Virus genome (UHGV): UHGV-0299584
Reading direction: 5' to 3' (one strand)
DNA from: a virus
DNA length: 29,351 nt
Positions 2,928-27,624 of this stretch are shown one piece after another. Each line of letters opens with the position of its first letter. Positions within the stretch are counted from its first letter, which is position 1. The notes under the pieces are model-generated. The model did no database searches, had not been told where the DNA came from, and worked only from the letters and a program-made list of their open reading frames with translations. The translations under genes were made by a program, and so were the position numbers.

Positions 2928-4404
2928 TAACCTGAGCGACGAAGAGCAAATCGAATTGCTCGAGCTACTCGAAGAAGAAGAAAACTACCGGAACACACAC
3001 CTGCTATATGAATTTACGCCATACAGCAAACAGCGTGAGTTCATCGACGCCGGACATGACTATCCAGAGCGATGTTTTATGGCTGGTAACCAGCTTGGTA
3101 AGTCATTTACTGGTGCTGCTGAAGTCGCGTTTCACCTTACAGGGCGTTATCCGGGCACAAAAGGCTATCCTGCTGATGGTAAATATGGTGGGGAGTGGAA
3201 AGGTAAGCGTTTCTATGAGCCTGTTGTCTTCTGGATTGGTGGCGAGACAAACGAGACGGTAACCAAAACGACTCAACGCATCCTGTGCGGTCGTATCGAA
3301 GAGAATGATGAGCCAGGCTACGGTTCCATACCTAAAGAAGACATCATTAGCTGGAAGAAGTCTCCTTTCTTTCCGAACCTTGTTGATCATCTTCTGGTTA
3401 AGCATCACACGGCTGATGGCGTTGAAGATGGCATTTCAATCTGCTACTTCAAACCATACTCGCAAGGCCGCGCTCGCTGGCAGGGTGACACAATCCACGG
3501 CGTGTGGTTTGACGAAGAGCCACCATACAGCATTTATGGCGAAGGTCTTACCCGTACCAACAAATACGGGCAATTCTCAATTCTGACGTTTACCCCGCTG
3601 ATGGGGATGTCTGACGTTGTTACCAAGTTCCTGAAGAATCCAAGCAAGTCGCAGAAAGTGGTCAACATGACCATCTATGACGCTGAGCACTACACCGACG
3701 AGCAGAAAGAGCAAATCATCGCATCCTATCCTGAGCATGAGAGAGAGGCGCGTGCTCGCGGTATTCCTACGATGGGTAGTGGTCGAATCTTCCAGATACC
3801 GGAAGAGACGATTAAGTGTCAGCCGTTCGAGTGTCCTGATCACTTCTACGTAATTGGCGGGATGGATTTCGGATGGGATCACCCGCAGGCGCAGGTTCAG
3901 CTTTGGTGGGATAAGGACGCAGACACAATCTACGTTTCACGCGTGTGGAAGGCGAAAGAAAAAACAGCGGTTCAGGCATGGGGAGCTGTTAAATCATGGG
4001 CGCATAAAGTGCCAACCGCATGGCCTCATGACGGAAACCAGCATGAGAAGGGCGGCGGTGAGCAGCTCAAAGGGCAGTATGCAGACGCTGGATTTATGAT
4101 GTTACAGGAGCATGCGACATGGCCTGATGGCGGTAATGCTGTTGAGCCTGGCATCACTGAATTGCGCGACATGATGCTCGATGGTCGCTTCAAAGTATTC
4201 AACACCTGTGAGCCATTCTTTGAGGAGTTCCGCCTCTATCACCGTGATGAAAACGGGAAAATCGTCAAGCTTAACGACGACGTTCTCTCAGCCGTTCGCT
4301 ATGCATACATGATGCGCCGCTTTGCCAAAATGATGCGCGATATCAAAAAACCAAAAGAGAAAAAGATACCAGCCCCAATCAGGCCCATCGCACGGAGAAC
4401 TTAA
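2905..4404 (+). CDS. terL: Terminase large subunit (P22 gp2-like)
   Basis: 499 aa, the same length as P22 gp2 and near-identical by recollection; GTG start. Confidence 0.93.
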
Positions 4405-6570
4405 ATGGCCGACGAAAACAGACTCAATTCCATTCTGTGCAAGTTTGACGCGGACTGGATGGCGAGCGATGAAGCCAGAACCGAGGCGACAAATGACCTG
4501 TATTTTAGCCGAGTGTCGCAATGGGATGACTGGCTATCAAACTACACCACCCTGCAATATCGCGGACAATTCGATGTTGTTCGCCCGGTGGTCAGGAAAC
4601 TGGTCGCAGAGATGCGTCGGAACCCTATCGACGTTCTATTCAGACCCAAAGACGGCGCTAATCCTGATGCAGCCGATGTGTTGATGGGGATGTATCGTAC
4701 TGATATGCGCCATAACACGGCAAAGATTGCCGTTAACGTTGGCGTTCGTGAGCAGATAGAGTCCGGCGTTGGTGCATGGCGTCTGGTCACACAGTACGAA
4801 GACAACGACCCAACAAGCAACAATCAGGTAATCCGACGCCTTCCAATCCATGAAGCCTGCTCACACGTCATATGGGACGCAAACAGCAAGCAGATGGATA
4901 AGAGCGACGCTAAGCACTGCACGGTGATTAACGCCTTGTCGCGCAATGGCTGGAAAGAGTTCGCAGAGGATTACGGTATTGATCCTGACACCCTGCCATC
5001 TTTCCAGAATCCGAACGACACATGGCTGTTTCCGTGGGTATCGAATGATGTCGTCTACGTCGCTGAGTATTACGAGGTAGAAGAGAAGAAGGAGAAAGTC
5101 TTCATCTACCGCGACCCGTTGACAGGTGAGCCAGTCAGCTATTACCAGCAGGATATTAAAGACGTTATCGACGACCTGGCTAATCGTGGATTCATTAAGG
5201 TAGCAGAGCGCAAGGTGAAGCGTCGTCGTGTGTATAAGTCGATCATCACCTGCACGCAGATACTGAAAGACCGAGAAAAGATAGCCGGAGAGCATATCCC
5301 AATCGTTCCAGTGTATGGAGAATGGTCATTCGCTGGTGACAAGGAGTGCTACGAGGGAGTGGTAAGGCTGACGAAAGACGGTCAACGCCTTCGTAACATG
5401 ATCATGTCGTTCAACGCCGATATTGTTGCTCGTTCACCGAAGAAGAAACCGACCTTCTTCCCTGAGCAAATCGAAGGCTACGAATACATGTACGGTGGAA
5501 ATGATGACTATCCGTACTATCTGCAGAACAGGACCGATGAAAACGGTAACGACCTGCCGATTGGTCCAATCTCCTACATGGAAAACCCTGAAGTGCCGCA
5601 AGCCAACGCTTACATGCTTGAGGCTGCCACCAACGCAGTGAAAGAGGTGGCTAGTCTTGGCGTGGATGCGCAGGCAGCAAACTCTCAGGTCGCTTTCGAT
5701 ACTGTCAATCAACTGAACATGCGAGCAGACCTTGAGACATATGTGTTTCAGGATAACCTGGCTACCGCAATGCGACGTGATGGCGAGATTTATGCCTCAA
5801 TGGTCAACGATATTTATGACGTTCCTCGTCATGTAACGCTGACACTTGAAGATGGTAGCGAGAAAGACGTTCAACTATACGCGCAAGTTGTAGATTACCA
5901 GTCCGGTAATGTGGTCACGCTCAACGACATTCGCGGTCGCTATGAGTGCTATACAGACGTTGGACCATCCTTCCAGAGTATGAAGGAACAGAACCGCGCA
6001 GAGATTCAGGAGTTGCTCACCAAGGTTCCGCAAGGTACTCCAGAGTTCCAGATGCTGATGCTGCAATACTTCACGCTGCTTGACGGTAAAGGCGTCGAGA
6101 TGATGCGAGAGTACGCGAACAAGCAACTGGTGATGATGGGGCTGAAGAAACCAGAAACACCTGAAGAGATGGAGATGGTACAGCAGGCTCAACAGCAGCC
6201 GCAGCAGCCATCAGCAGAGCAAATTCAGGCGCAGGGTATCCTTCTGCAAGGTCAGGCTGAATTGCTCAAGGCAGAGAACCAACAGGCGCAGATTCAGGTT
6301 GAAGCCGCCAAGGTTGAAGCCCAAAACCAACTCAACGCCGCGAAGATTGCGGAAATCTTCAACAATATGGACCTCGACAAACAGGCAGAACTGCGTGAGT
6401 ACCTCAAGCTCGTAGGTCAATTCCAGCAACAGCGCAGCAAAGATGCTCGTGCTAACGCTGAGCTGCTTCTTAAAGATGCAGACCAGACTCATTCACAACG
6501 CATGGATTTCGCGAATCTTATGCGTCAAGTTCAAATCCCCTCCGGCGGAGTAGCCGAGACACCTCAATAA
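4405..6570 (+). CDS. Portal protein (P22 gp1-like)
   Basis: 721 aa; N-terminus [18 protein letters not shown]... and Q/A-rich C-terminal barrel region match the P22 portal as recalled. GGAG RBS; ATG abuts the terL stop. Confidence 0.95.
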
Positions 6571-6583
6571 GAGAGAGTTAACC

Positions 6584-7495
6584 ATGGACCAAACCACCGA
6601 CATTCAGGCTTCTGAAGAATTAACCCTGCCCGGCAATCATGCAGCGGCATCTGCTGATGGCTTAGTTGTCGATAATGCCAACGACATCGCAGGTCAGGAA
6701 GAAGGCTTCGAGATTGTCCTGAAAGACGATGAGAAACCAAAACAAGACCCGGCAACTAATGCTGAATTTGCCCGTCGCCGCATCGAACGCAAACGCCAGC
6801 GTGAGCTTGAGCAGCAGATGGAAGCGGTTAAGCGTGGAGAGTTGCCGGAGCACCTGCGGGTGAACCCTGAGTTACCAAAACAACCAGACCCTAACGATTA
6901 TCTTTCCGAAGATGCACTGGCTAAGTACGACTATGACCAGAGCCGCGCACTGGCTGCCTTCCAGCAGGCAAACAGTGAATGGCAGATCAAGGCTATGGAC
7001 GCACGAAGCCAGGCTGTCGCCGAGCAGGGTCGCAAAACTCAGGAGTTCACCCAGCAATCAGCGCAATACGTCGAGGCAGCCCGTAAGCACTACGACGCAG
7101 CGGAAAAGCTCAATATCCCTGACTATCAGGAGAAAGAGGATGCATTCATGCAACTGGTGCCGCCAACAGTCGGTGCCGATATCATGCGCCTCTTCCCGGA
7201 GAAATCCGCTGCTCTCATGTATCACCTTGGTGCTAATCCTGAGAAAACACGCCAGTTGCTGGCGATGGACGGGCAATCCGCGCTGATTGAACTCACTCGA
7301 CTGTCAGAACGTTTAACTCTCAAGCCTCGAGCCAAGCCTGTTTCAGAAGCCCCGTTACCTGATGAACCCATTCAGGGACATGCTGTTGCTGCAAATATCT
7401 CTGCGATTGAAAAGCAGATGGAGGCGGCAGCAAACAAAGGGGATGTAGAGACGTACCGCAAGCTCAAGGCGCAACTGAATAAAGGAATTCGATAA
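6584..7495 (+). CDS. Scaffolding protein (P22 gp8-like)
   Basis: 303 aa, same length as P22 gp8, with conserved C-terminal coat-binding helix-turn-helix region (...[18 protein letters not shown]). Confidence 0.92.
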
Positions 7496-8017
7496 TTATT
7501 TCGATATCGTGATGTTGTTTTCCTCGTCAAACTTTCTGATTACTTCTTTCGCCTCTTCGAATGAAGAACATACTTTTTGCACTCTTGCATTAAGCAGTCG
7601 CTTATGAGCGATCCATCTTTTCCGCGTGTTGCAAAAGTAAACTCCAGATATTCCGCTGGAGTTATTTTTAGATAGTTTGATTCTATTCCTTTGGTTTGCT
7701 GATTTTTTCACAAGACGAAGATTTTCAATTCTGTTGTCGTGGCGAATCCCATTTATATGGTCAATTTCCATGCCTTCTGGAATATCTCCGTTAAACATTA
7801 CCCATACGATGCGGTGTGCTAGCCACTTAATGCCGTTAATTCTTATGCGGATATATCCATTGCTTTCTAAAAGACCAGCAACTTTTCCAGCGTGTTTTGC
7901 ATTCCAAACGTTGTGATAGTTGCGATTCTTTTTGTTGTTGAAAAATTCAGAGCTTCTGGCTTTCCAAACCAAAGAACCATCGCGGTATTCGAAGTATTCA
8001 TTCAGTTCCATGCTCAT
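7496..8017 (-). CDS. Free-standing HNH homing endonuclease
   Basis: 173-aa product contains the HNH core EIDHINGIRHDNRIENLRLV plus a C-terminal basic region (GISGVYFCNTRKRWIAHK) resembling the DNA-binding modules of phage homing endonucleases. Antisense to the late operon, AT-rich by eye; its stop abuts the scaffold stop. Confidence 0.8.
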   Translation of the reverse strand: MSMELNEYFEYRDGSLVWKARSSEFFNNKKNRNYHNVWNAKHAGKVAGLLESNGYIRIRINGIKWLAHRIVWVMFNGDIPEGMEIDHINGIRHDNRIENLRLVKKSANQRNRIKLSKNNSSGISGVYFCNTRKRWIAHKRLLNARVQKVCSSFEEAKEVIRKFDEENNITISK

Positions 8018-8084
8018 AACCCTAATGCGCTATATGTTGATATAACAATAGTATAGCACATAAAGAAAGTAAGGTATTCAATAT

Positions 8085-9380
8085 ATGACTCTCAAAGAAG
8101 GGCAGTTAGTTACTTACGCTATCGATGAAATCATCGAAACCGTCCAGAACCTGACGCCAATGGCGTCCAAAGTGACAAAATACACCCCTCCGGCAGAATC
8201 CATGCAACGTTCAAGCAACACCGTGTGGATGCCTGTTGAGCAGGAAGCGCCAACTCAGACTGGCTGGGATTTAACTGGCAACGCAACCGGGATTCTGGAA
8301 CTCTCCGTGAAGTGCAACATGGGCGATCCGGATAACGATTTCTTCGAGCTTCGTGCAGATGACCTGCGTGATGAGCGTTCTTACCGTCGCCGCATCCAGG
8401 CATCCGCCAAAAAACTGGCGAATAACATTGAGTCAGCAATTGCCAAACAGGCAACCGAAATGGGCTCACTTGTTGTTCACGATACCAGCGCAATTGGTCC
8501 ATCTACTGGCCTGTCTGGCTGGGATTTTGTGTCTGATGCAGAGCGACTGATGTTCTCCCGCGAACTCAACCGCGACATGGGTATCAGTTACTTCCTGAAC
8601 CCTGACGATTACCGCAAAGCAGGCCGCAATCTTGTAGATGGTGACATCTTCGGGCGCGTTCCTGAAGATACGTATCGCAACGGTACTATTCAGCGTCAGA
8701 TTGCTGGCTTTGATGAAATTCTTCGCTCACCGAAACTTCCGGCAGTTACCAAGTCAACCGCTACTGGTGTAACTGTTTCTGGCGCGCAGAAGTTTAAGCC
8801 GCAGGCATACACCCTTGATACCGATGGTAACAAAGAGAACGTCGACAACCGTGTTGCAACGGTGACCGTATCCTCCACCACCGGATTTAAGCGCGGCGAC
8901 AAAATCAGTTTCACTGGTGTGAAATTCCTGTCTCAGATGGCGAAGAACGTGCTGACTGATGATGCAACTTTCTCAATCACCCGTGTGATCGATAGTACTC
9001 ACATCGAAATCACGCCGAAGCCGATTGCACTGGATGACGCGTCACTGACAAAAGAAGAGAAGGCTTACGCTAACGTAAACACCTCTCTTGCTGATACCAC
9101 TCCGGTAAACGTTCTGAACGTGGCAACAACCACCGCTAACGTGTTCTGGGCTGATGACTCAATCCGCCTTCTGTCTCAGCCGATCCCGGTAACCCATGAA
9201 CTGTTTGCTGGCATGAAAACGTCTTCCTTCAGCATTCCTGGTATTGGTGTTAACGGCATCTTCGCAACGCAGGGTGATATCAACACTCTGTCTGGTAAGT
9301 GCCGTATTGCTGTGTGGTATTCAGCATGTGCTGTACGACCAGAAGCAATTGGTGTTGGTCTGCCTAATCAGACCGCGTGA
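8085..9380 (+). CDS. Major coat protein (P22 gp5-like)
   Basis: 431 aa; sequence tracks the P22 coat protein along its length by recollection (e.g. ...[12 protein letters not shown]..., ...[11 protein letters not shown]..., C-terminal [14 protein letters not shown]). Confidence 0.95.
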
Positions 9381-9423: not shown

Positions 9424-9696
9424 ATGACACACATGATCTTTCGTCATGGCGACATGAAGAAATGGAAAGGCGTTGGATACGACTTTGAAATCGTGAAAGC
9501 CGAAGAGCTTCAGGAATATCTGGATGCTGGCTGGTTTGCACATCCTGATGATCTTCTGAAGGATGTTGCAGAGCCAGAGCCAGAGCCAGAGCCAGAGCCA
9601 GAACCAGAGCCAGAGCCAGAGCCAGAAGAAAAACAGCGTAAAAAGCCTGGTCGAAAACCTAAGGCGGCAGCAGATGAACCTGACAACGAAGGGTGA
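9424..9696 (+). CDS. Small acidic protein with (Glu-Pro)n linker repeat
   Basis: ATG 9424 with GGAGA RBS. Product [38 protein letters not shown]... then an EP dipeptide run, then the basic tail [11 protein letters not shown]. Overlaps the gp4 start. Confidence 0.6.
9571..9624 (+). repeat. Tandem hexanucleotide repeat (GAGCCA)x9, one unit GAACCA
   Basis: Nine contiguous 6-nt units read directly from the sequence, in frame as Glu-Pro. Confidence 0.95.
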
Positions 9697-17128: not shown

Positions 17129-18790
17129 ATGACAGACATTACAGCCAATGTTGTAGTGAGTATGCCTTCGCAACTCTTCACTATGGCGCGTTCTTTTAAA
17201 GCGGTTGCCAATGGCAAAATTTATATCGGTAAAATTGACGCTGACCCGGTAAATCCTGAAAACCAGATTCAGGTTTATTTAGAGAACGAAGACGGCTCTC
17301 ACGTTCCTGTATCGCAACCAATCATCATTAACGCTGCTGGTTACCCGGTATATAACGGACAGATCGCCAAATTCGTTACTGTACATGGCCATTCTATGGC
17401 TGTTTATGATGCGTACGGTGCTCAGCAGTTCTATTTTCCTAATGTGCTGAAGTACGATCCCGATCAGCTTAGATCACAGATAGAATACGGGCAGTATATT
17501 CACATTCCTGATGGTTATTCACATTATGATGAGTTTGATAATATTCCTCTGAATATATTGGGTGTGGATTATAGTCCTGTTAATGTATATGATGTTTCTT
17601 ATGATGTGTTGACTGGTATATTTAAAGTTTCTGTTCAGAATGCAGATAATTTTCATGTTGGTAAATATTGTATACTTTCTGGCAGGAGAGACATTTCATG
17701 TGGAGCGATGATAATTTCCAAGGATGGAAATGTTTTAACATTGGATATGAGTCACAATGGTATAATTTCAGGCCCGGTTAACGGGGTTGTGGCAAAACCA
17801 ATAAATTCCATAATAAAAACAACAAAAGGAATACAATTTAGATCAAATATATACAGCATAAAAAATGTTGCTATTGAAACAGATGGTGATTACGGACTCA
17901 TTATCGGAGGTGGATACTACCCTGATTCACAATGTGGTAGTTGCGTAGTTTGGGATGCAAACAATTTAATTGTAAATGGAGGCTCTGTTTGTGGAGTTCT
18001 TGTTTCTGGCTCTGGATCTCAGTTTTGTATCAATGAAGTTCATATTACTAACGCAAATATTTCGCTGGAATGTATTTACGCAGCTAGCGTGAAAGGTTTT
18101 TCATTTTCATCATACAATTCAAATGAAGACTCAATTAAGGTTGAGCATGCTTCATCTTGCTATATAAAAGAATTGTCAATTATAAAACCGAAAACTCAGT
18201 CTTGCGTAGCGGCTCGTTATTCATCATCTGTAGAGATATCTGATTGTTATATGGTTGGAAGTGAAGGTTCAGCATTTGCTACCAGCCAATTTTCCTCATA
18301 TTTATCATTAAGAAATATTGTTATGCTAGGGAGCGCAAAATATGCGATAAACTGCGTCGATGGTGCTGTTGTCGCAATAAATAATATCGACGCCTCTTTA
18401 GCTAAAGTGGATTATGGGGTAAGGGTTGAAAAACACTCAGTTTTAAGACAGGTAGGTATAAATAGCAATTTTTCAGGTTCTATTGCCGATTCGCTAATAA
18501 ATAACTCTCATGTTGATTTCAATGATATCGTGTTTTCTGGGAAAAAAATTAAATCAACAATTAATGTTGGTTCAATTAATCCAAACTCTAGATTTTCAAT
18601 TCAGAGGGTAGCTACTGGATATAAAATAGAAAATGAACTTCCAATCAATATGACGGTGTTAGGAGATCTGCCAATAGGGGTTATAACTGATGTATTGGCA
18701 ATATCAGACGACATGATTCGTGTTACATTCCAAAACACTAGCTCATCACCTGTTGATGTTGGCAGTGTTGATGTCATTATAGGATGGTAA
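17129..18790 (+). CDS. Tailspike: conserved head-binding domain fused to a divergent beta-helix receptor-binding domain
   Basis: First ~115 aa ([34 protein letters not shown]...VLKYDPDQ) match the P22/Sf6/HK620 head-binding domain as recalled. The remainder is AT-rich, Ser/Asn/Ile/Gly-rich and shows no recognisable similarity to P22 gp9. GGAG RBS. Confidence 0.85.
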
Positions 18791-18875: not shown

Positions 18876-19469
18876 TTATAGTAATCGCCTATCCCATTTC
18901 ACACCTGTTTTGATTATTTTTGCTGGAGTACCAGCAATAATAATATTGCTTTCAGAAAATTTACCAGTTACAGTTGCCCTTGCGCCAACAATAGTTTCAT
19001 CTGGAATAAAGGCACCTTTCATGATGAGCGCATCAAGACCAATCCAGCACTTATCTCCTATTGATATGTTTTTTGCTGGATTTATCCTGTTTCCATCCAT
19101 ATCTGTTATTGAATGTGAGTCTGTTGTTCTTATTTGAACGCCTGACGCAAACATGCAATTAACACCAATTGAAACACTAGTCCCCTCTTGAATGTTTATA
19201 TTGGTGTTCTGAAAGCTTGTAAGGCTTGATATCACGAGACAGTTCCCATCGCCTCTCATATTTACAGAGCCAACTATAGAACACCTCTCACCGATATTAA
19301 TAGTATTATTATCACCATTTATCAAAATGGATAAATTATGTATTTTTGCATGCTTTTCTATATTTATATGATTGTTCTTTCCATTAATGCGAATAGATAT
19401 TTTTTTTATGTCAGCATCAACATGATTTATAGAGTTATTTTCTCCGGAAATCTGTTTTATTATATCCAT
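18876..19469 (-). CDS. Hexapeptide-repeat (left-handed beta-helix) acetyl/acyltransferase, moron
   Basis: Product shows periodic [LIV]-G-x4 hexads (INIGERCSIVGSVNMRGDGNCLVISS..., ISIGDKCWIGLDALIMKGAFIPDETIVGARATVTG) typical of the LacA/WcaF/CysE-type family. AT-rich; sits between tailspike and int. ATG 19469 preferred over TTG 19481. Confidence 0.7.
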   Translation of the reverse strand: MDIIKQISGENNSINHVDADIKKISIRINGKNNHINIEKHAKIHNLSILINGDNNTINIGERCSIVGSVNMRGDGNCLVISSLTSFQNTNINIQEGTSVSIGVNCMFASGVQIRTTDSHSITDMDGNRINPAKNISIGDKCWIGLDALIMKGAFIPDETIVGARATVTGKFSESNIIIAGTPAKIIKTGVKWDRRLL

Positions 19470-19783
19470 CACTATACTCAATTATTTTGATTGATTTATT
19501 TACAACTTATTAATGTATATGTCATAAATTATATCATAATTTTAATAAAAATCAATATACGAGGTTTTGCATGTATATATTGTAATTTATTGCATATGTT
19601 GATAATAAATTTTATTTGATGCTTAACATAATTATCATGAAATTAGTTATTCAATAACTCTTGTTTTTTAATGTGACAATCACGTTGCTTATATTTAATA
19701 ATGAAACTATATGGTTTTATTATTAAATTTGTGTTTACCTAGATGAATTAATTGTTTTATTTATGATTTTTATCATGGAATCA

Positions 19784-20941
19784 TTAATCCACCTTTTCAT
19801 CAACCCAATCCGCCCACCACTGCATCATTTCTCTGCGCTTATCGAGATACTGAGCATGGTTGTAAATCCCGCGCACAGATCCGCCGTTGGCATGTGCCAG
19901 TTGCGCTTCAATAGCATCAGCAGGCCATTCGTGCTCGTTCATAATCGTGCTGAATTCATGCCTGAATCCGTGACCGCTTTCCAGACCCTCATAGCCGATT
20001 TGTTTGATCACAAGTAGCACCGCGTTCTCGCAGATTGGCTTTTTCTTATCGTTGCGCCCGGCAAAAACAAACTCTGATACTGGTTTGGTGATTGAACTTA
20101 GCGTAGTGAGAAGTTCAACTACCTGGTCTGACATAGGAACCACATGAATTTTGCGTCCCTTCATCACACTGGCGTCGATGGTGATAATCCTGTTTTCAAA
20201 ATCGACGTTCTTCCATAGCATGGAACGAAGCTCTTTCGTTCTTAGGGCTGTGTAGCGTAAAACTTTGGTCGCAATGAGCGATACGATACTTCCTGAAAAT
20301 GTTGCCAGTGCTTTGTTGAATGCCGGGATCTGGTCTGCAGGAAGAAACGGGAAGTTCTTCTTGCGGTATCCCTTCATGGCGTCAGCAAGGTCAGGTGCCG
20401 GGTTATATTTAGCCCTACCAGTGACAATAGCGTAACGGAAAACCTCGCCGCATCTTCTGCGGGCTTTGTTGGCTCGCTCCATTGCACCGCGATCTTCAAA
20501 TCTGCGGATTACTTCCAGTAGTTGCATCGGCTCAATATCCTGAATTTCAAGACCGCCGATGATGGGTAAAATGTCGTCATCAAACATTTTTGCAAGTTCA
20601 TTTGCATAGCCTACTGACCAGACTTGCTTCTTGTGCTCGTACCATTCCTTGTAAATGGCGCTAAAGGAATTGTTGTTAGACGAAGCCTTTTTCGCCTTTA
20701 CCGGATCGATGCCAACCGAGATGTCTTTCCTCGCAGTCCATGCTTTATCCCTTGCCTCTTGCAAAGTCATAAGCGGATATTTTCCGACGGTCAGTATTTT
20801 CTCCTTACCGTCAATCTTGTAGCGAAGCTGCCATACCTTTTTCCCTGACACAGGGACATAAAGGTACAGGCCATTACCATCGAGTAGGCGGTATGGTTTT
20901 TCTTTCGGTTTTGCTGCTTCAATCTGCTTAACGGTGAGCAT
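19784..20941 (-). CDS. int: Tyrosine integrase (P4-like family)
   Basis: Product has the typical N-terminal arm (LTVKQIEAAKPKEKPYRLLDGNGLYLYV) and C-terminal catalytic region (...HGFRHEFSTIM..., ...RGIYNHAQYLDKRREMMQWWADW). Start ATG 20941, or GTG 20977 as in the ORF track. Confidence 0.9.
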   Translation of the reverse strand: MLTVKQIEAAKPKEKPYRLLDGNGLYLYVPVSGKKVWQLRYKIDGKEKILTVGKYPLMTLQEARDKAWTARKDISVGIDPVKAKKASSNNNSFSAIYKEWYEHKKQVWSVGYANELAKMFDDDILPIIGGLEIQDIEPMQLLEVIRRFEDRGAMERANKARRRCGEVFRYAIVTGRAKYNPAPDLADAMKGYRKKNFPFLPADQIPAFNKALATFSGSIVSLIATKVLRYTALRTKELRSMLWKNVDFENRIITIDASVMKGRKIHVVPMSDQVVELLTTLSSITKPVSEFVFAGRNDKKKPICENAVLLVIKQIGYEGLESGHGFRHEFSTIMNEHEWPADAIEAQLAHANGGSVRGIYNHAQYLDKRREMMQWWADWVDEKVD

Positions 20942-20986
20942 GGGTAAAAATCCGGTGGGTAAAATTATTTTATCCACTTTTTACCC
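20942..20986. repeat. Cluster of TTTTACCC / GGGTAAAA octamers (putative arm-type Int-binding sites)
   Basis: GGGTAAAA at 20942-20949 and 20957-20964; TTTTACCC at 20979-20986, read directly. Confidence 0.4.
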
Positions 20987-21723: not shown

Positions 21724-21981
21724 TTACCGCACCTCCAGTCTCCATACCGCCTGACCAATCCGGCTGGCATATGTATCTTTGGATACTGCTCCGTCTTTAG
21801 CCAGCTCCATAAGAATTTTGCGCAAATCTGCCGAACGCCATTCTTCATCAGGAAATTCCTTCTCCATTGCCAACCGCAAATTCCAGGTTGCCATCCTGAA
21901 TGGATATTCCCCGCCGAGAGCTTTATCTTGCAGGGCAGCCCGGGAACGCATCACCTGCAAAACCTTCTCTTTTACATCCAT
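21724..21981 (-). CDS. Hypothetical early-left protein (85 aa)
   Basis: ATG overlaps the upstream stop (TGATG); last gene of the coupled chain. Confidence 0.6.
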   Translation of the reverse strand: MDVKEKVLQVMRSRAALQDKALGGEYPFRMATWNLRLAMEKEFPDEEWRSADLRKILMELAKDGAVSKDTYASRIGQAVWRLEVR

Positions 21982-22991
21982 CACTTCACCTCCTGCTGTG
22001 GTGCTGCTGGCATTTCACGCCAGTGCGTAACTGAGTGCGGATCCGGATATTCGGTGCCATCATCCCAGCGATTGCCATTCCACATTGCAGACCACATCTC
22101 ACCGTCTTCATACATGACCATTACCGGAATTAACTTATCCGGCATTCGCTCACTACAGCTTATCCAACCATCCGGAGTCACCGGAAGCGAGAACGGCAGC
22201 ACATCTCTGTGAACAAGTTTTTGCTGTGACAGGTTATCCAGAACTTTCTGTACTGCTGCATCACCGAATACACCAAGCGCATCTGCCATAACTCCTACAA
22301 CCTGATAAGCCTCAGCGCATACCGTGGATAAACCATCCGGAATTACCGGAGAGTTGCCGGGTTCTTTAATGTGCAAGCGAGGCTCACCATCTTTTGGTTC
22401 AGGCCACTGGCGCTCCATGTTGATCTTCAATTTATCTTCCATAGCAGCGGTAATTTCAGCATCGCTGATGCCAGCACGGCGCTGTGCATCCCACAACAGG
22501 AAATGCATATCAGCCCACTCGCTGAGATCGTCTGGTTCGGCTGCGGCTTCCAGAGCCTCTTTTGAGAGGTGTTTCAGTGGACCAATGGGGCCAACGCAGC
22601 CAAATGTGGAGTCAGACCATTTGGCATGCTCGTGGCGAATCAGTTCGCGTTCCAGTGATGCCAGTGCAATTCGTGCCAGTTCTTCCGCTTCTTCTGCTGG
22701 CAGTACAACGTTGCTACCAGGTCCGTATGTTTCGCGCCACCGCTTGATTGTCAGCAGTCGCTCTTTGGTAATAGTGCTCATGGGTTTTCCCTCCGCCATC
22801 TCTTCATCGGTTTCCCATAAAACTCGCGCCTGCCCCTCACAGACTTGAATGACTCCGCCACGACCGCAGGAGTTGCACTTAACGGCATCGTCATCCCACA
22901 AGGCGGTTTCATTTCCGCGAGCTGTTTTGACCGTGTGTGATTTATTCCCGCAGCGGCATTTGTTGAGCCAGTCAATAGTGAAAGTTTTCAT
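21981..22991 (-). CDS. EaA-like multidomain early protein (Cys cluster, DUF550-like, DUF551-like)
   Basis: N-terminal CxC...CxxC cluster (CRCGNKSH...CNSCGRGG); a central region resembling the dATP/dGTP pyrophosphohydrolase-like DUF550; a C-terminal domain sharing motifs with the 71-aa protein at 1633-1848. ATGA overlap with the upstream gene. Confidence 0.7.
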   Translation of the reverse strand: MKTFTIDWLNKCRCGNKSHTVKTARGNETALWDDDAVKCNSCGRGGVIQVCEGQARVLWETDEEMAEGKPMSTITKERLLTIKRWRETYGPGSNVVLPAEEAEELARIALASLERELIRHEHAKWSDSTFGCVGPIGPLKHLSKEALEAAAEPDDLSEWADMHFLLWDAQRRAGISDAEITAAMEDKLKINMERQWPEPKDGEPRLHIKEPGNSPVIPDGLSTVCAEAYQVVGVMADALGVFGDAAVQKVLDNLSQQKLVHRDVLPFSLPVTPDGWISCSERMPDKLIPVMVMYEDGEMWSAMWNGNRWDDGTEYPDPHSVTHWREMPAAPQQEVK

Positions 22992-26673: not shown

Positions 26674-26699
26674 CAAAAATAAAGGCCGACTATGCGGCC
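26674..26699 (-). terminator. Putative intrinsic terminator after the 207-aa gene
   Basis: - strand reads GGCCG-catagt-CGGCC followed by TTTATTTTTGG; the gene's stop codon lies in the loop. Confidence 0.45.
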
Positions 26700-27313
26700 T
26701 CGGAAGGAAGTCCAATCATCTTATTCAAATCTTCTACCCGTAAAGCAGGAAGTGCTGTACTTGCTTTATCTGCTTCTTTTGGTAGCAACTCTTTGCTTTC
26801 AGGCCAAACTTCAATAAGTCGCTTAACTGTTGTGACTGAGTTCAAAGCAGCCCATACATTTGATTCGATATCCTTTTTCTTGGCTTCAAGTTTTTGTTGC
26901 AATGCGCAGATTTCATCAAACCTTTTTGTTATTTCGTGTTCTGCGTCAAACATGCATTTATCTTTTTCTGGGGTGGGGAGCAATATATCTTCACCGTTGC
27001 CGTCTTTTCCGTATGAATGCCAGCCAACTCTTCTGCCAGATACAGTCAGATAAATTGAAGCAAAACGAACATCGCATGAGTAAAATGAACATCCCAGTTT
27101 TTCAAGTTCTTCACTTATAGCTACTAACTTGGATGATAACTGATCCACTTCCTCAGTTTTCTTTTTACCGCCAAACGCAATAACTCTGGCGTCAAGTGCA
27201 AGCTGGTTCTTTAACTTTATTACTTCTTCAAGTTCAGTGAAAACCCCAGACTTAATTAAAGCGTTACGAGCGATTTCCTCTTTCATTCTCGTAGTTAAGC
27301 GGATTGATGACAT
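26690..27313 (-). CDS. Unrecognised 207-aa protein, AT-rich, between N and cIII
   Basis: ATG 27313 with GAGAGGAA RBS, 11 nt after the N stop. No transmembrane segment or motif I recognise. Visibly lower GC than flanking genes (not computed). Confidence 0.6.
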   Translation of the reverse strand: MSSIRLTTRMKEEIARNALIKSGVFTELEEVIKLKNQLALDARVIAFGGKKKTEEVDQLSSKLVAISEELEKLGCSFYSCDVRFASIYLTVSGRRVGWHSYGKDGNGEDILLPTPEKDKCMFDAEHEITKRFDEICALQQKLEAKKKDIESNVWAALNSVTTVKRLIEVWPESKELLPKEADKASTALPALRVEDLNKMIGLPSEAA

Positions 27314-27324
27314 ATTAATTCCTC

Positions 27325-27624
27325 TCAAATAAGTGGTTTGCTGCCTAATTTCATTTTCTGGCGACCAACACAAGTCACACCTATTTCACTGCGTGGCTTG
27401 CTGTAGTAAATACGGTTCTGTTTACGCTCGACTTCTTCTGCCTTCTTGCAGCGAAGGCTTCCGAGTGATGCTGCTTTATCTGCTCTGACGCAACCAGAGA
27501 GCTTTAGCGAAATTTTTCGCGCCAGTCGCTGCTCTTGCATTGCCTGTTCACGTTGAGCCTGTCTGCGTGCTCTGCGGCGATTTCTGGCGTTATCGTCAGC
27601 CAGATATGTAATGACTACTGTCAT
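27325..27624 (-). CDS. N: N-family transcription antiterminator
   Basis: 99-aa product with an N-terminal arginine-rich motif (NARNRRRARRQAQREQ). C-terminus NRIYYSKPRSEIGVTCVGRQKMKLGSKPLI matches lambda N (RTWYSKPGERGITCSGRQKIKGKSIPLI) as recalled. GGAGG RBS. Confidence 0.8.
   Translation of the reverse strand: MTVVITYLADDNARNRRRARRQAQREQAMQEQRLARKISLKLSGCVRADKAASLGSLRCKKAEEVERKQNRIYYSKPRSEIGVTCVGRQKMKLGSKPLI

Follow-up and report, generated by a model that had tools for sequence, protein, structure and literature searches.

An antisense HNH endonuclease gene between the scaffold and coat genes of a P22-like phage genome

The viral genome UHGV-0299584 carries an endonuclease gene on the minus strand between the genes for scaffold and coat, and the question is what this gene is, how it came to occupy the junction of two capsid genes and what keeps it there. 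A preliminary description of the window (the whole stretch of 29,351 nucleotides that was analysed) took it for a recent insertion of a selfish HNH gene. We found no paper in the literature on an HNH gene between the scaffold and coat of P22-like phages, and the GenBank records give only the label 'HNH endonuclease'. The insert belongs to a known kind of mobile gene, of which it is a clear but unremarkable case. Free-standing homing endonucleases are familiar from virulent phages, and little work has been done on them in temperate lambdoid/P22-like phages. This locus offers a ready-made natural experiment, with carrier alleles, empty alleles and a third class in which the site is empty but the tract is rewritten. 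Laboratory phages grown on E. coli K-12 already cover the carrier state (Louie, Dewey) and the empty state (CurroJimenez Bas106), and this classical model system lends itself to direct tests of homing, of marker exclusion and of whether the gene is expressed in the prophage. As argued below, we consider it probable, judging from sequence comparisons, that positions 7496-8123 form a free-standing ('intronless') homing endonuclease cassette.

The nuclease gene and its protein

The ORF list and the sequence agree with the coordinates of the preliminary description to the nucleotide (Table 1). The stop codon of the 173-aa ORF (TTA on the plus strand, 7496-7498) directly abuts the scaffold TAA at 7493-7495, which is the left border of the insert, and its ATG (8017-8015) lies 67 nt before the coat ATG, with Met3 at 8011 as a start codon that may be the true one instead. 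The flanking genes are scaffold and coat, as had been said, and their reading frames are intact on either side of the intergenic nuclease gene, which is the sole ORF inside the insert. The AT-richness that had been noticed holds relative to these neighbors (GC 0.375 for the insert against 0.51-0.53 in the scaffold and coat genes), yet the insert is no outlier against the window as a whole, where the mean GC is 0.47 (sd 0.053) and 8% of all 589-nt windows are as low or lower.

Table 1. Features in and around the scaffold/coat junction, with positions in the window
Feature	Position	Strand	Basis
Scaffolding protein gene, P22 gp8 type	6584..7495	+	Pfam PF09306, E=3e-178
Free-standing HNH endonuclease gene, 173 aa	7496..8017	-	ORF, HNH_3 E=3.9e-22, PHROG 99
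C-terminal AP2-like DNA-binding domain, predicted, residues ~121-166, three strands and a helix	7520..7657	-	AlphaFold, Foldseek
HNH_3 catalytic core, residues 66-110 (D86-H87, N95, N99, N108)	7688..7822	-	Pfam match, I-HmuI alignment
Bidirectional spacer, 67 nt	8018..8084	.	Absent from empty-site relatives; compared across four lineages
Predicted extended -10 promoter element for the nuclease, TGCTATACT	8050..8058	-	Read from sequence
Shine-Dalgarno-like TAAGG for coat	8070..8074	+	Sequence; conserved in carrier lineages
Rewritten coat 5' end, codons 1-13	8085..8123	+	14 substitutions vs empty alleles, inherited with the nuclease gene
Coat (major capsid) gene, P22 gp5 type	8085..9380	+	Pfam PF11651, E=1.6e-162

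That the insert holds a genuine HNH endonuclease gene and not a chance ORF is borne out by a match to the Pfam family HNH_3 (PF13392; 78 bits against a cut-off of 24.8, profile positions 2-46 of 46) and by one to PHROG 99, 'HNH endonuclease' (E=1.3e-50); NCBIfam contained no model matching the nuclease. In phages Louie and Dewey the gene is likewise annotated 'HNH endonuclease'. The catalytic His and Asn residues are in place: D86-H87, N95/N99 and N108 align with the D-H...N...N of I-HmuI, and H68, D86, H87, D94, N95, R96, N99, L100 and N108 are invariant across 89 homologues. A high-confidence AlphaFold model (pLDDT 90.3) shows the protein as a single chain in which an I-HmuI-like HNH nuclease is followed by an AP2-like domain at the C terminus. 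The top Foldseek match in the PDB is I-HmuI (1u3e_M; probability 1.00, 73 columns, rmsd 3.0, E=3.4e-3), covering the nuclease half only, and I-HmuI is the best solved relative by sequence as well (E=8e-4). The C-terminal part matched AP2 domains in Foldseek (9hqv_Yn, 3igm, 6sy0 and 7wq5) with probabilities of 0.4-1.0 and weak E-values. The Pfam AP2 profile stayed below threshold on this fragment (17.9 bits against a cut-off of 33.3, E=0.0038), and the homologues P0009, P0012 and P0018, which carry PF00847, align across the C-terminal region.

I-HmuI of Bacillus phage SPO1 (PDB 1U3E) resembles the protein in its single HNH ββα-metal motif, in the N-terminal beta-sheet region before this motif and in size (174 aa against 173 aa here). 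It differs in its helical/helix-turn-helix C-terminal modules, which are AP2-like here, and the identity of about 30% is confined to 73 aligned columns. I-HmuI is a nicking enzyme that cuts one strand. Its gene is encoded in a group I intron, whereas the gene described here is free-standing and intergenic; a group I intron or another structured RNA was rejected, as there is no Rfam family match or intron-like RNA in 7200-8400. A transposable element was also rejected, as the ends of the insert show no terminal inverted or direct repeats and the insert codes for no protein other than the HNH nuclease; by eye, there is a weak resemblance between the 3' end of the scaffold gene and the right end of the spacer. 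The nearest homologues outside the clade found at this site are HNH-AP2 endonucleases of T1-like and other enterobacterial siphophages (37-49% identity). They have the same domain order, and several of them pass the Pfam AP2 threshold, but they occupy other genomic sites: none of the 221 loci of more distant homologues that were checked (0/141 in the collection scans and 0/80 in the species-representative set) lies between a P22-type scaffold and coat gene or beside either of them. The P22-site clade is set apart from these sequences by an N-terminal insertion of its own (about residues 22-40) and by an AP2 motif that has diverged, C-N-[ST]-R...W-[IMV]-A.

Empty sites and the borders of the mobile unit

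Alignment with P22-like relatives revealed a precise empty site, and the gene is absent from about 90% of them. The closest relatives lack exactly 7496-8084 (589 nt). Among phages there are two carriers, Louie and Dewey, and four unique empty genomes, IME10 (present as three records and counted once), APC_JM3.2, CurroJimenez Bas106 and HZ41, with flanks that are about 97% identical; the last 55 nt of the scaffold gene match those of the empty-site relatives except for two single-base variants in IME10. Of the E. coli prophages with the same capsid module, 20 out of 218 (about 9%) carry the insert, always as a single copy and always at the scaffold/coat junction, and about 198 are empty. IMG/VR contains 11-12 carriers against at least 120 empty sites, and the species-representative genomes added neither close relatives nor other cases at the junction. 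All 12 full nuclease copies that were checked are intact, near-identical copies differ at five synonymous and three nonsynonymous sites and contain no stop codons, and phages that differ mosaically have the same cassette, with no more than 5 differences in 589 nt. A 102-aa fragment (P0005) was rejected as evidence of decay, as the same assembly has a 1-nt deletion in the coat gene and the truncation is probably a sequencing error.

A new finding relative to the preliminary description is that the mobile unit spans 7496-8123 and thus reaches 39 nt into the coat gene. When 600 polymorphic sites in 3.3 kb of flanking sequence were compared across 91 genomes, 14 were linked to the gene, and all of these fall at 8088-8123, in coat codons 2-13. 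At these sites r2 is 0.63-1.0, and it drops to background right outside the cassette (at most 0.11 everywhere else, the last 200 nt of the scaffold gene included). Similarly, 13 of the 14 fixed differences between carriers and empty alleles in 5.8 kb are located in 8085-8123. Compared with empty alleles of the same lineage, the tract differs at 14 of its 39 positions (36%) and the next 300 nt at 1%; compared with the L024 lineage, the tract differs at 6 of 39 positions and the next 300 nt at 19%. Such a reversal is the pattern that would be expected from co-conversion of a donor flank. The changes in codons 2-13 are almost all synonymous.

The nucleotide sequence of the empty junction varies little from one lineage to another (ATG GCT YTW AAY GAA GGT CAA), and codons 6-7, which read GGT-CAA in empty alleles, are GGG-CAG here. 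GGR-CAG is present at these codons in all 29 carrier loci (6 tract haplotypes, 5 nuclease lineages) and in 1 of 36 empty haplotypes, an association that is phylogenetically non-independent because the tract travels with the gene, which weakens it as an argument for homing. Our candidate for the target, and for what confers immunity, is GGT-CAA versus GGR-CAG at codons 6-7. The cassette borders are resolved to a few bases, and the predicted target is coat nt ~1-39, especially this pair of codons.

Several observations at the borders count against a homing cassette. On the left side there is no co-conversion tract, and among the 91 genomes no scaffold polymorphism is linked to the insert. The tract is not exclusive to carriers: a rare empty allele with rewritten codons 4-13 is present in 8 E. 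coli genomes and 3 IMG/VR contigs, and the gene could have inserted into an allele that already had the tract. In other lineages, replicate pairs of carrier and empty loci (L020 versus L414; L392 versus L391, L393 and L394) point in the same direction as the main comparison, but with a tract enrichment of only about 2-fold, because the coat genes in these pairs differ by 9-12% overall.

Spacer signals and age of the site association

The 67-nt spacer arrives with the insert. Its minus strand provides the start signals of the nuclease gene, and its plus strand gives coat a new ribosome-binding site. The -10 element is kept as TGCTATACT in L020, as TGCTATAAT in L024 and as TATAAT in L025, and the spacer around it diverges. 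It was seen by eye only, as a scan for two-hexamer -35/-10 promoters called none on the minus strand, which also counts against a homing cassette. The nuclease is probably transcribed from this extended -10 promoter of its own, opposite to the late operon. The preliminary description had proposed antisense transcription across the coat leader. With a promoter located within the spacer and firing away from coat, the antisense RNA would likely cover the nuclease ORF but not the coat ribosome-binding site, so the antisense part of the proposal is retained and the part concerning the coat leader is not. Unless terminated, this RNA would also cover the 3' end of the scaffold gene. The only candidate for a minus-strand terminator after the nuclease stop codon (7264-7250) is scaffold coding sequence and was rejected; we treat it as incidental because it is also present in the ~99%-identical scaffold gene of empty-site genomes. 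A plus-strand hairpin with a T-run (7640-7663) was likewise rejected as a terminator of the late operon. It sits in the codons of the conserved NSSGISGVY motif, and its structure and stability are not kept (-12.9 kcal/mol here versus -8.2, -7.8 and -4.3 kcal/mol in three other lineages).

In the empty genomes, the scaffold stop and the coat start overlap by 1 nt (TAATG). The insert abolishes this translational coupling of coat to scaffold, and that is why it brings its own coat ribosome-binding site, TAAGG or TAGGA, about 9 nt upstream of the coat ATG in all carrier lineages. The case shows a selfish insert replacing the translational coupling of two stoichiometrically matched capsid genes, and the phage survives.

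How long the gene has been at this junction can be judged from its homologues. In other P22-like lineages, homologues with 82, 74, 59 and 43% identity lie at this junction and are oriented as the gene is here (the 82% homologue is that of L024 and the 59% one that of L025, both between scaffold and coat). All 19 loci with at least 74% protein identity in two collection scans lie between a P22-type scaffold and coat gene. Because such diverged homologues occupy the same site in the same orientation, the site association is old and not the result of a single recent event. The nuclease has diverged between lineages about as much as the flanking genes, with protein identities for scaffold, nuclease and coat in three other lineages of 76/82/88%, 74/74/72% and 51/61/68%. 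This parallel divergence argues against frequent jumps between capsid lineages; it also fits long vertical residence with occasional loss and in this respect weighs against homing. The dN values are 0.10-0.31 with saturated dS, and the one pair with a defined dS gives a dN/dS of 0.05, comparable to that of the coat gene, which points to strong purifying selection on the nuclease lineages at this site. On the other hand, the polymorphism for presence or absence of the gene is young, as can be told from flanks that show about 96-99% identity and no linkage to the gene. The 'recent mobile insertion' of the preliminary description is therefore correct for the polymorphism but not for the gene lineage, which has long been at the junction of capsid lineages that are 51-88% identical in protein, the nuclease being about as diverged as these.

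Homing and the alternative explanations

The course of events that we favor would begin in a cell that also contains a second P22-like genome with an empty site. The enzyme would recognize the conserved scaffold-stop/coat-start junction (...AAAGGAATTCGATAATGGCATTAAATGAAGGTCAA...) and nick or cut within the first ~40 nt of the coat gene. A cut at about nt 9-21 would fit the point at which the tract begins on the left in the rare empty alleles, and this is the weakest step. The break would then be repaired by recombination against the carrier genome with the phage recombination functions Erf and Abc2, both of which are encoded in the same genome, and the repair would copy both the 589-nt insert and 39 nt from the start of the donor coat gene. 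The carrier allele would be immune, the junction being split by the insert and coat codons 2-13 being rewritten. We infer cleavage, its position, the choice between a nick and a double-strand break, the promoter and immunity from the sequence. Marker exclusion against relatives, also raised in the preliminary description, is plausible. A further point against homing is that free recombination of P22-like phages could by itself place a fixed cassette on shuffled backgrounds.

Intronless homing and localized marker exclusion are documented for the free-standing T4 endonucleases SegF, SegG and MobE (PMC2988022, PMC2790892). As in our case, these are intergenic nuclease genes beside essential genes and patchy among relatives, the adjacent flank is co-transferred, and carrier alleles differ at the presumed target (PMC2988022, PMC2790892). 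T4 is a virulent phage in which the activity was demonstrated experimentally, whereas the gene described here belongs to a temperate P22-like phage or prophage and was read from sequence. The free-standing nuclease genes of T4 are generally co-oriented with their neighbors. Compared with them, the present gene runs antisense within a late operon, where it interrupts a stop/start coupling and provides a ribosome-binding site in its place, and its linked flank is very short (39 nt) and one-sided. A second parallel is provided by the I-HmuI-like nucleases of lactococcal Skunavirus phages, which cluster by insertion site (PMC12724721). They are also free-standing, with a conserved N-terminal HNH part and a variable C-terminal DNA-binding part, and their number and positions vary between genomes; the phage group and the insertion site are different, and exclusion has been shown in vivo for some of them, as opposed to the sequence data available here (PMC12724721).

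Exclusion may also be what maintains the gene. We regard it as unlikely, but worth weighing, that the gene is kept mainly as a weapon of the phage in competition, with homing as a side effect. A sigma-70-type promoter would then be active in the lysogen, in which the late operon is silent, and the enzyme would cut superinfecting or co-resident P22-like genomes with an empty junction. The biochemistry is the same as for homing, and the difference lies in what maintains the gene. An antisense orientation and a conserved -10 element within an operon that is off in lysogens would suit this role, and so would the long-term purifying selection seen between lineages, since an element that is purely selfish would normally be expected to decay. 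The frequency of about 9% appears stable and low, but it would be unexpected if the advantage were strong. The empty alleles with a rewritten tract could be survivors that became resistant by repair without gaining the gene. Expressed I-HmuI-like nucleases lower the plating of Skunavirus phage sk1, which is without those nuclease genes (PMC12724721), again in line with use as a weapon. There are weak matches to the PADLOC 'HEase' models, but these are generic homing-endonuclease models, and no defense-system partner genes are located nearby. In one metagenome contig (L317), a real-looking 20-nt deletion removes the catalytic Asp-His, as would be expected for a decaying selfish gene; this is a single case, too few for a decay cycle. 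In its full form, to which we likewise give little credence, this explanation would make the clade at the scaffold/coat site a long-lived weapon expressed by the prophage, with an antisense promoter active while the late operon is silent, that strikes the head operon of P22-like phages, either incoming or co-induced, where the nucleotide sequence of that operon is most conserved, so that attacked genomes become carriers or resistant 'scar' alleles (empty site, rewritten codons 4-13). If this is true, the three allele classes in E. coli prophages would be the record of a continuing arms race over the start of a capsid gene, and the antisense orientation would be a timing device switched off by late transcription.

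More doubtful still is the possibility that the gene dates from a single ancient insertion and has ceased to promote its own transfer. Its patchiness would then result from vertical descent combined with replacement by empty alleles through homologous recombination among P22-like phages, and the 39-nt tract would be an island of old divergence too near the insert to be separated from it. The divergence of the nuclease, which tracks that of scaffold and coat in the three other lineages, fits this explanation, as do the left flank without linked markers and the divergence of the tract from empty alleles, which is at the between-lineage level. However, a nonfunctional nuclease would not keep its catalytic residues invariant and a dN/dS of about 0.05 (with dS saturated). 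The shared cassettes in mosaically different phages are also difficult to explain in this way, and GGR-CAG has been kept in every carrier lineage while neighboring synonymous sites turned over. This retention suggests continuing selection against GGT-CAA beside the gene, expected only if the enzyme still cuts. Finally, a packaging-associated function (of the HK97 gp74 kind, assisting terminase) or another essential morphogenetic role, which the position within the head-assembly block a few kb from the terminase and portal genes might suggest, is effectively refuted by the ~90% of close relatives that are viable and assemble capsids without the gene, and it is further contradicted by the opposite strand relative to the head genes, by the portal and scaffold genes that separate the gene from terminase, by an HNH_3/I-HmuI type with an AP2-like domain and not the terminase-associated type, and by the headful packaging of P22-like phages from a pac site. 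The HNH fusion described in the epsilon34 paper is a different one and is located in the early-left operon.

Gene order and the HNH nuclease

The window covers most of a P22-like (Lederbergvirus) genome, whose genes are listed in the table together with the loci used for comparison. The insert is the 589 nt (7496-8084) between the scaffold and coat genes. The nuclease stop codon directly touches the scaffold stop, and the nuclease start lies 67 nt from the coat ATG. The G+C content of the insert is 37.5%, compared to 51-53% in scaffold and coat, and 8% of the 589-nt stretches across the whole window are equally AT-rich. The ORF, its strand, the abutting stops, the 67-nt gap, and the AT-richness had all been reported in the preliminary description and are found at the coordinates it assigned to them.

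Positions of the window's genes and of comparison loci (window coordinates unless a locus is named)
Feature	Position	Strand	Remarks
Rz lysis protein, Rha-like regulator, small terminase, large terminase			left part of the window, in this order
Portal	4405-6570		after the large terminase
Scaffold	6584-7495		after the portal
HNH nuclease ORF, 173 aa	7496-8017	minus	between scaffold and coat
Coat	8085-9380		followed by gp4, gp10, and the ejection proteins
Tailspike	17129-18790		after the ejection proteins
Integrase	19784-20977	minus	after the tailspike
Early-left genes, including Abc2, Erf, and C2-type repressor			beyond the integrase
HNH gene of locus L392	1392-1928 (locus)	minus	43% identity, antisense, just upstream of coat
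HNH gene of locus L405	1438-1950 (locus)		36% identity, antisense, just upstream of coat
Third allele: L016 (AVS0578), L017 (ECONIH6), L018 (TO6); L146-L148 (IMG/VR)	2992-3030 (locus, L016-L018)		equivalent to window 8085-8123

The claimed HNH identity is borne out by matches to Pfam HNH_3 (78 bits against a cut-off of 24.8, E=3.9e-22) and PHROG 99, "HNH endonuclease" (E=1.3e-50). Among proteins of solved structure, the closest in sequence is the homing endonuclease I-HmuI (1U3E; E=8e-4), and the catalytic residues are in place: Asp86-His87, Asn95/Asn99, and Asn108 pair with the Asp-His...Asn...Asn of I-HmuI in the alignment and are unchanged across 89 homologues. An AlphaFold model built from that alignment (mean pLDDT of 90.3) again has I-HmuI as the best PDB match of its nuclease half, and residues ~121-166, three strands and a helix, best match AP2 DNA-binding domains. 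For this protein Pfam AP2 stays below threshold (E=0.0038), but several homologues aligning over the same residues do receive an AP2 call. PADLOC returned generic "homing endonuclease" models only. A search for structured RNA families at the nuclease locus was negative, and thus no group I intron was detected; transposon-like terminal repeats were sought at the insert and not found.

Empty sites, the mobile unit, and its rewritten tract

The insert is shared by phages Louie and Dewey (98.4-98.6% identity across scaffold, insert, and coat), whose annotations name the gene "HNH endonuclease"; their genome announcement does not discuss it. Exactly these 589 nt are missing from IME10, APC_JM3.2, CurroJimenez Bas106, and HZ41, whose scaffold and coat genes are ~97% identical and where the scaffold TAA overlaps the coat ATG as TAATG. 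Because these empty-site phages share it with Salmonella phage ST64T, this overlap is the ancestral state. In a survey of 5,426 complete E. coli genomes, the capsid module was present in 218, and 20 of these carry the insert, always as a single chromosomal copy at the scaffold/coat site; 19 of the 20 copies reach 99% identity or more. The remaining genomes with the module gave a two-piece match that covers 799 nt rather than 1,389, as an empty site does. In IMG/VR there were 11 or 12 carriers and at least 120 empty junctions among the matches listed. The comparison with relatives thus yielded a precise absence in close phages and in most E. coli prophage modules.

When three carriers were compared with two empty genomes over 5.8 kb, 13 of 14 fixed differences fell at 8088-8123, in coat codons 2-13. 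A larger set of 91 genomes, each complete in both flanks (10 carriers, 77 ordinary empty genomes, and 4 empty genomes of a third class), has 600 polymorphic sites over 2,000 nt leftward and the whole coat gene rightward. Presence of the gene is linked only to 14 sites at 8088-8123 (r2 = 1.0 at four and 0.63-0.68 at ten); r2 is at most 0.11 everywhere else, including the last 200 nt of scaffold and coat from 8125 on. Therefore, the unit that travels is 7496-8123: it begins exactly where scaffold stops, ends 39 nt into coat, and has flanks that are fully shuffled relative to it. Phages with high identity over only about half of their genomes have this cassette in common (no more than 5 differences per 589 nt). 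The earlier interpretation as a mobile insertion is supported, with refinements.

Compared with same-lineage empty alleles, the linked coat tract (8085-8123) has 14 substitutions in 39 positions (36%), and the next 300 nt differ by 1%; compared with the L024 lineage, a related carrier, the tract differs by 15% and the next 300 nt by 19%. Because of this reversal, the tract looks like coat sequence of a donor lineage brought in along with the gene. Its changes are mostly synonymous, nine of this type in codons 3-11 in addition to A2T, N4K, and L13I, and the coat N-terminus that it encodes is also found in an empty-site phage of an L024-like lineage.

A third allele, present in 8 of the ~198 E. 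coli genomes without the insert and also in 3 IMG/VR contigs, combines an empty site with TAATG overlap and ordinary coat codons 2-3 (GCA TTA) with codons 4-13 identical to the carrier tract. It could be the original recipient allele that the gene entered, or a carrier that lost the gene through a crossover between coat nt 9 and 12. Alternatively, it could be a scar of break repair in which only the right side of the donor was copied, leaving a resistant site without the gene; the break would then lie at about coat nt 9-12.

Age of the association, spacer signals, and predicted target

The nearest protein homologues are antisense at the same junction of P22-type scaffold and coat genes, with identities of 82% (L024), 74% (L019-L023 and L316), and 59-61% (L025). 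They lie stop to stop with scaffold, except for an 11-nt gap in L025, and leave a spacer of 60-67 nt ahead of the coat ATG. Other coat lineages have further HNH genes there (L392 and L405). L392 keeps TAATG after scaffold, followed by a short gap containing a hairpin; L405 keeps GGT-CAA and has no coat Ala2 codon. Site specificity is sharp: in two collection scans, all 19 loci with homologues at least 74% identical were at the scaffold/coat junction, and a P22-type scaffold or coat neighbour was found at none of 141 weaker matches in these viral and metagenome scans and none of 80 matches in species-representative genomes. The nuclease tracks its neighbours, with scaffold/nuclease/coat protein identities of 76/82/88%, 74/74/72-74%, and 51/61/68%.

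Between lineages, dS of the nuclease is saturated and dN is 0.10-0.31; dN/dS is 0.05 in the sole pair with a defined dS, similar to that of coat (0.07-0.14). Near-identical copies vary at five synonymous and three non-synonymous sites. All full-length copies checked are intact, and the only clearly degenerate one among ~45 is on metagenome contig OHBN01012218.1 (L317), where a 20-nt deletion equivalent to window 7747-7766 removes the catalytic Asp-His codons and shifts the frame. Another copy, in E. coli, is truncated, probably through misassembly, as coat is also frameshifted in that assembly. The diverged homologues at one junction and the constrained dN/dS therefore indicate that the tie between this nuclease clade and the scaffold/coat junction is old, with the protein under selection throughout. 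The insertion had been called recent, which holds for the young presence/absence polymorphism within the E. coli lineage but not for the clade.

Spacers of four lineages share a minus-strand -10 element (TGCTATACT in the window and L020, TGCTATAAT in L024, and TATAAT with TTGCAT at 17-nt spacing in L025), followed by diverged sequence and a Shine-Dalgarno motif ahead of the nuclease ATG; a comparable element, TGATAAAAT, can be read in L392. As a two-hexamer promoter scan called nothing, we infer a nuclease promoter from conservation only. If it is real, transcription would start near 8043 and run away from coat, so that antisense transcription, as proposed earlier, would stand but its passage across the coat leader would not. 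A perfect 8-bp hairpin followed by a T-run inside the nuclease ORF (7640-7663, plus strand) resembles an intrinsic terminator for late-operon transcription and was rejected because the three other lineages do not conserve it. Plus-strand TAAGG or TAGGA is kept by all lineages ~9 nt before the coat ATG and replaces the stop/start coupling that coat has lost. The right end of the insert (8066-8084, AAGTAAGGTATTCAATAT followed by ATG) resembles the scaffold 3' end (7478-7495, ATAAAGGAATTCGATA followed by ATG), normally the source of the coat ribosome-binding site, and all four carrier lineages have an AAGGnAT(T/G)(C/G)AAT-like stretch before the coat ATG. This likeness, which was not picked up by a repeat finder, could reflect either convergence on a ribosome-binding site or a duplication that arose at the original insertion and has since decayed.

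Over ~70 further P22-like loci whose coat proteins match that of L020 at 70-100% identity, empty junctions conserve their nucleotide sequence even at synonymous positions: AAAGGAATnAAATA ATG GCT YTW AAY GAA GGT CAA. In L391-L461 (position ~1985-2021, equivalent to window 8085-8105), this covers the scaffold end and first seven coat codons and persists among lineages with only ~70% identical coat proteins. Such conservation suggests an mRNA constraint, through translational coupling or initiation, independent of the nuclease. Across 227 pooled non-redundant loci, coat codons 6-7 are GGG-CAG or GGA-CAG in 29 of 29 carriers (six tract haplotypes, five nuclease lineages) and GGT-CAA in 182 of 198 empty loci (36 haplotypes, just one with GGG-CAG). 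The chance of this split is ~1e-6 at the haplotype level, although carriers, which inherit the tract along with the gene, are not independent of one another. Synonymous positions nearby vary between carrier lineages while GGR-CAG stays, which suggests selection against the conserved GGT-CAA beside an active nuclease. From the retention of GGR-CAG in carriers, we predict a site of recognition or cleavage within the first ~20-40 nt of coat.

Possible mode of spread and other features of the window

In the best-supported reading, which we consider likely, the gene encodes a free-standing homing endonuclease and invades empty junctions through break-induced recombination. The nuclease would break the empty junction, and recombination repair, for which the phage's own Erf/Abc2 system is at hand, would install the cassette; the split junction and rewritten tract would make carriers immune. 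Here we infer cleavage, its position, its form (a nick, as made by I-HmuI, or a double-strand cut), and use of the promoter. The same enzyme might instead be kept mainly as a competition weapon expressed from the prophage; homing could still occur, and we consider this unlikely as the main selective force. Slightly less likely again is a passive, old resident moved by general recombination only, a reading at odds with both the GGR-CAG rule and the strong purifying selection. A role in packaging or morphogenesis is excluded by the many viable relatives without the gene, and we give it hardly any credence.

The locus shows every feature of a free-standing homing endonuclease gene that can be checked on sequence. 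In its proposed mode it resembles the intronless homing of T4 SegF, SegG, and MobE (PMC2988022, PMC2790892). Another parallel is with the I-HmuI-like nucleases of Skunavirus: their phylogeny follows the insertion site, and some exclude sk1, a phage without these genes (PMC12724721). Nuclease genes beside essential genes are a general theme (PMC10055350). We found no publication describing an HNH gene between scaffold and coat of P22-like phages. Particular to this case are the temperate P22-like host, the antisense position within the late operon, the replaced scaffold-coat translational coupling, the very short, one-sided linked tract, and the population structure of three alleles. The locus is valuable mainly as a clean, immediately testable system.

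Elsewhere in the window, a small ORF between coat and gp4 (9424-9696) contains a tandem hexanucleotide repeat, (CAGAGC) x 9.7 at 9569-9626, encoding a Glu-Pro dipeptide run followed by a basic tail; in relatives, this gap is variable in length and annotated with differing small hypothetical genes. The lowest G+C of the window (0.24 over 589 nt) is at 19191-19780, between tailspike and integrase, overlapping a 201-aa minus-strand ORF (18876-19481); a moron or the attachment-site region may lie here. On the minus strand, 21981-22991 encodes a dATP/dGTP pyrophosphohydrolase domain fused to DUF551, and 26690-27373, in the early-left operon adjoining Erf, encodes an Nmad5 domain ("nucleotide modification associated domain 5," E=1.5e-69).
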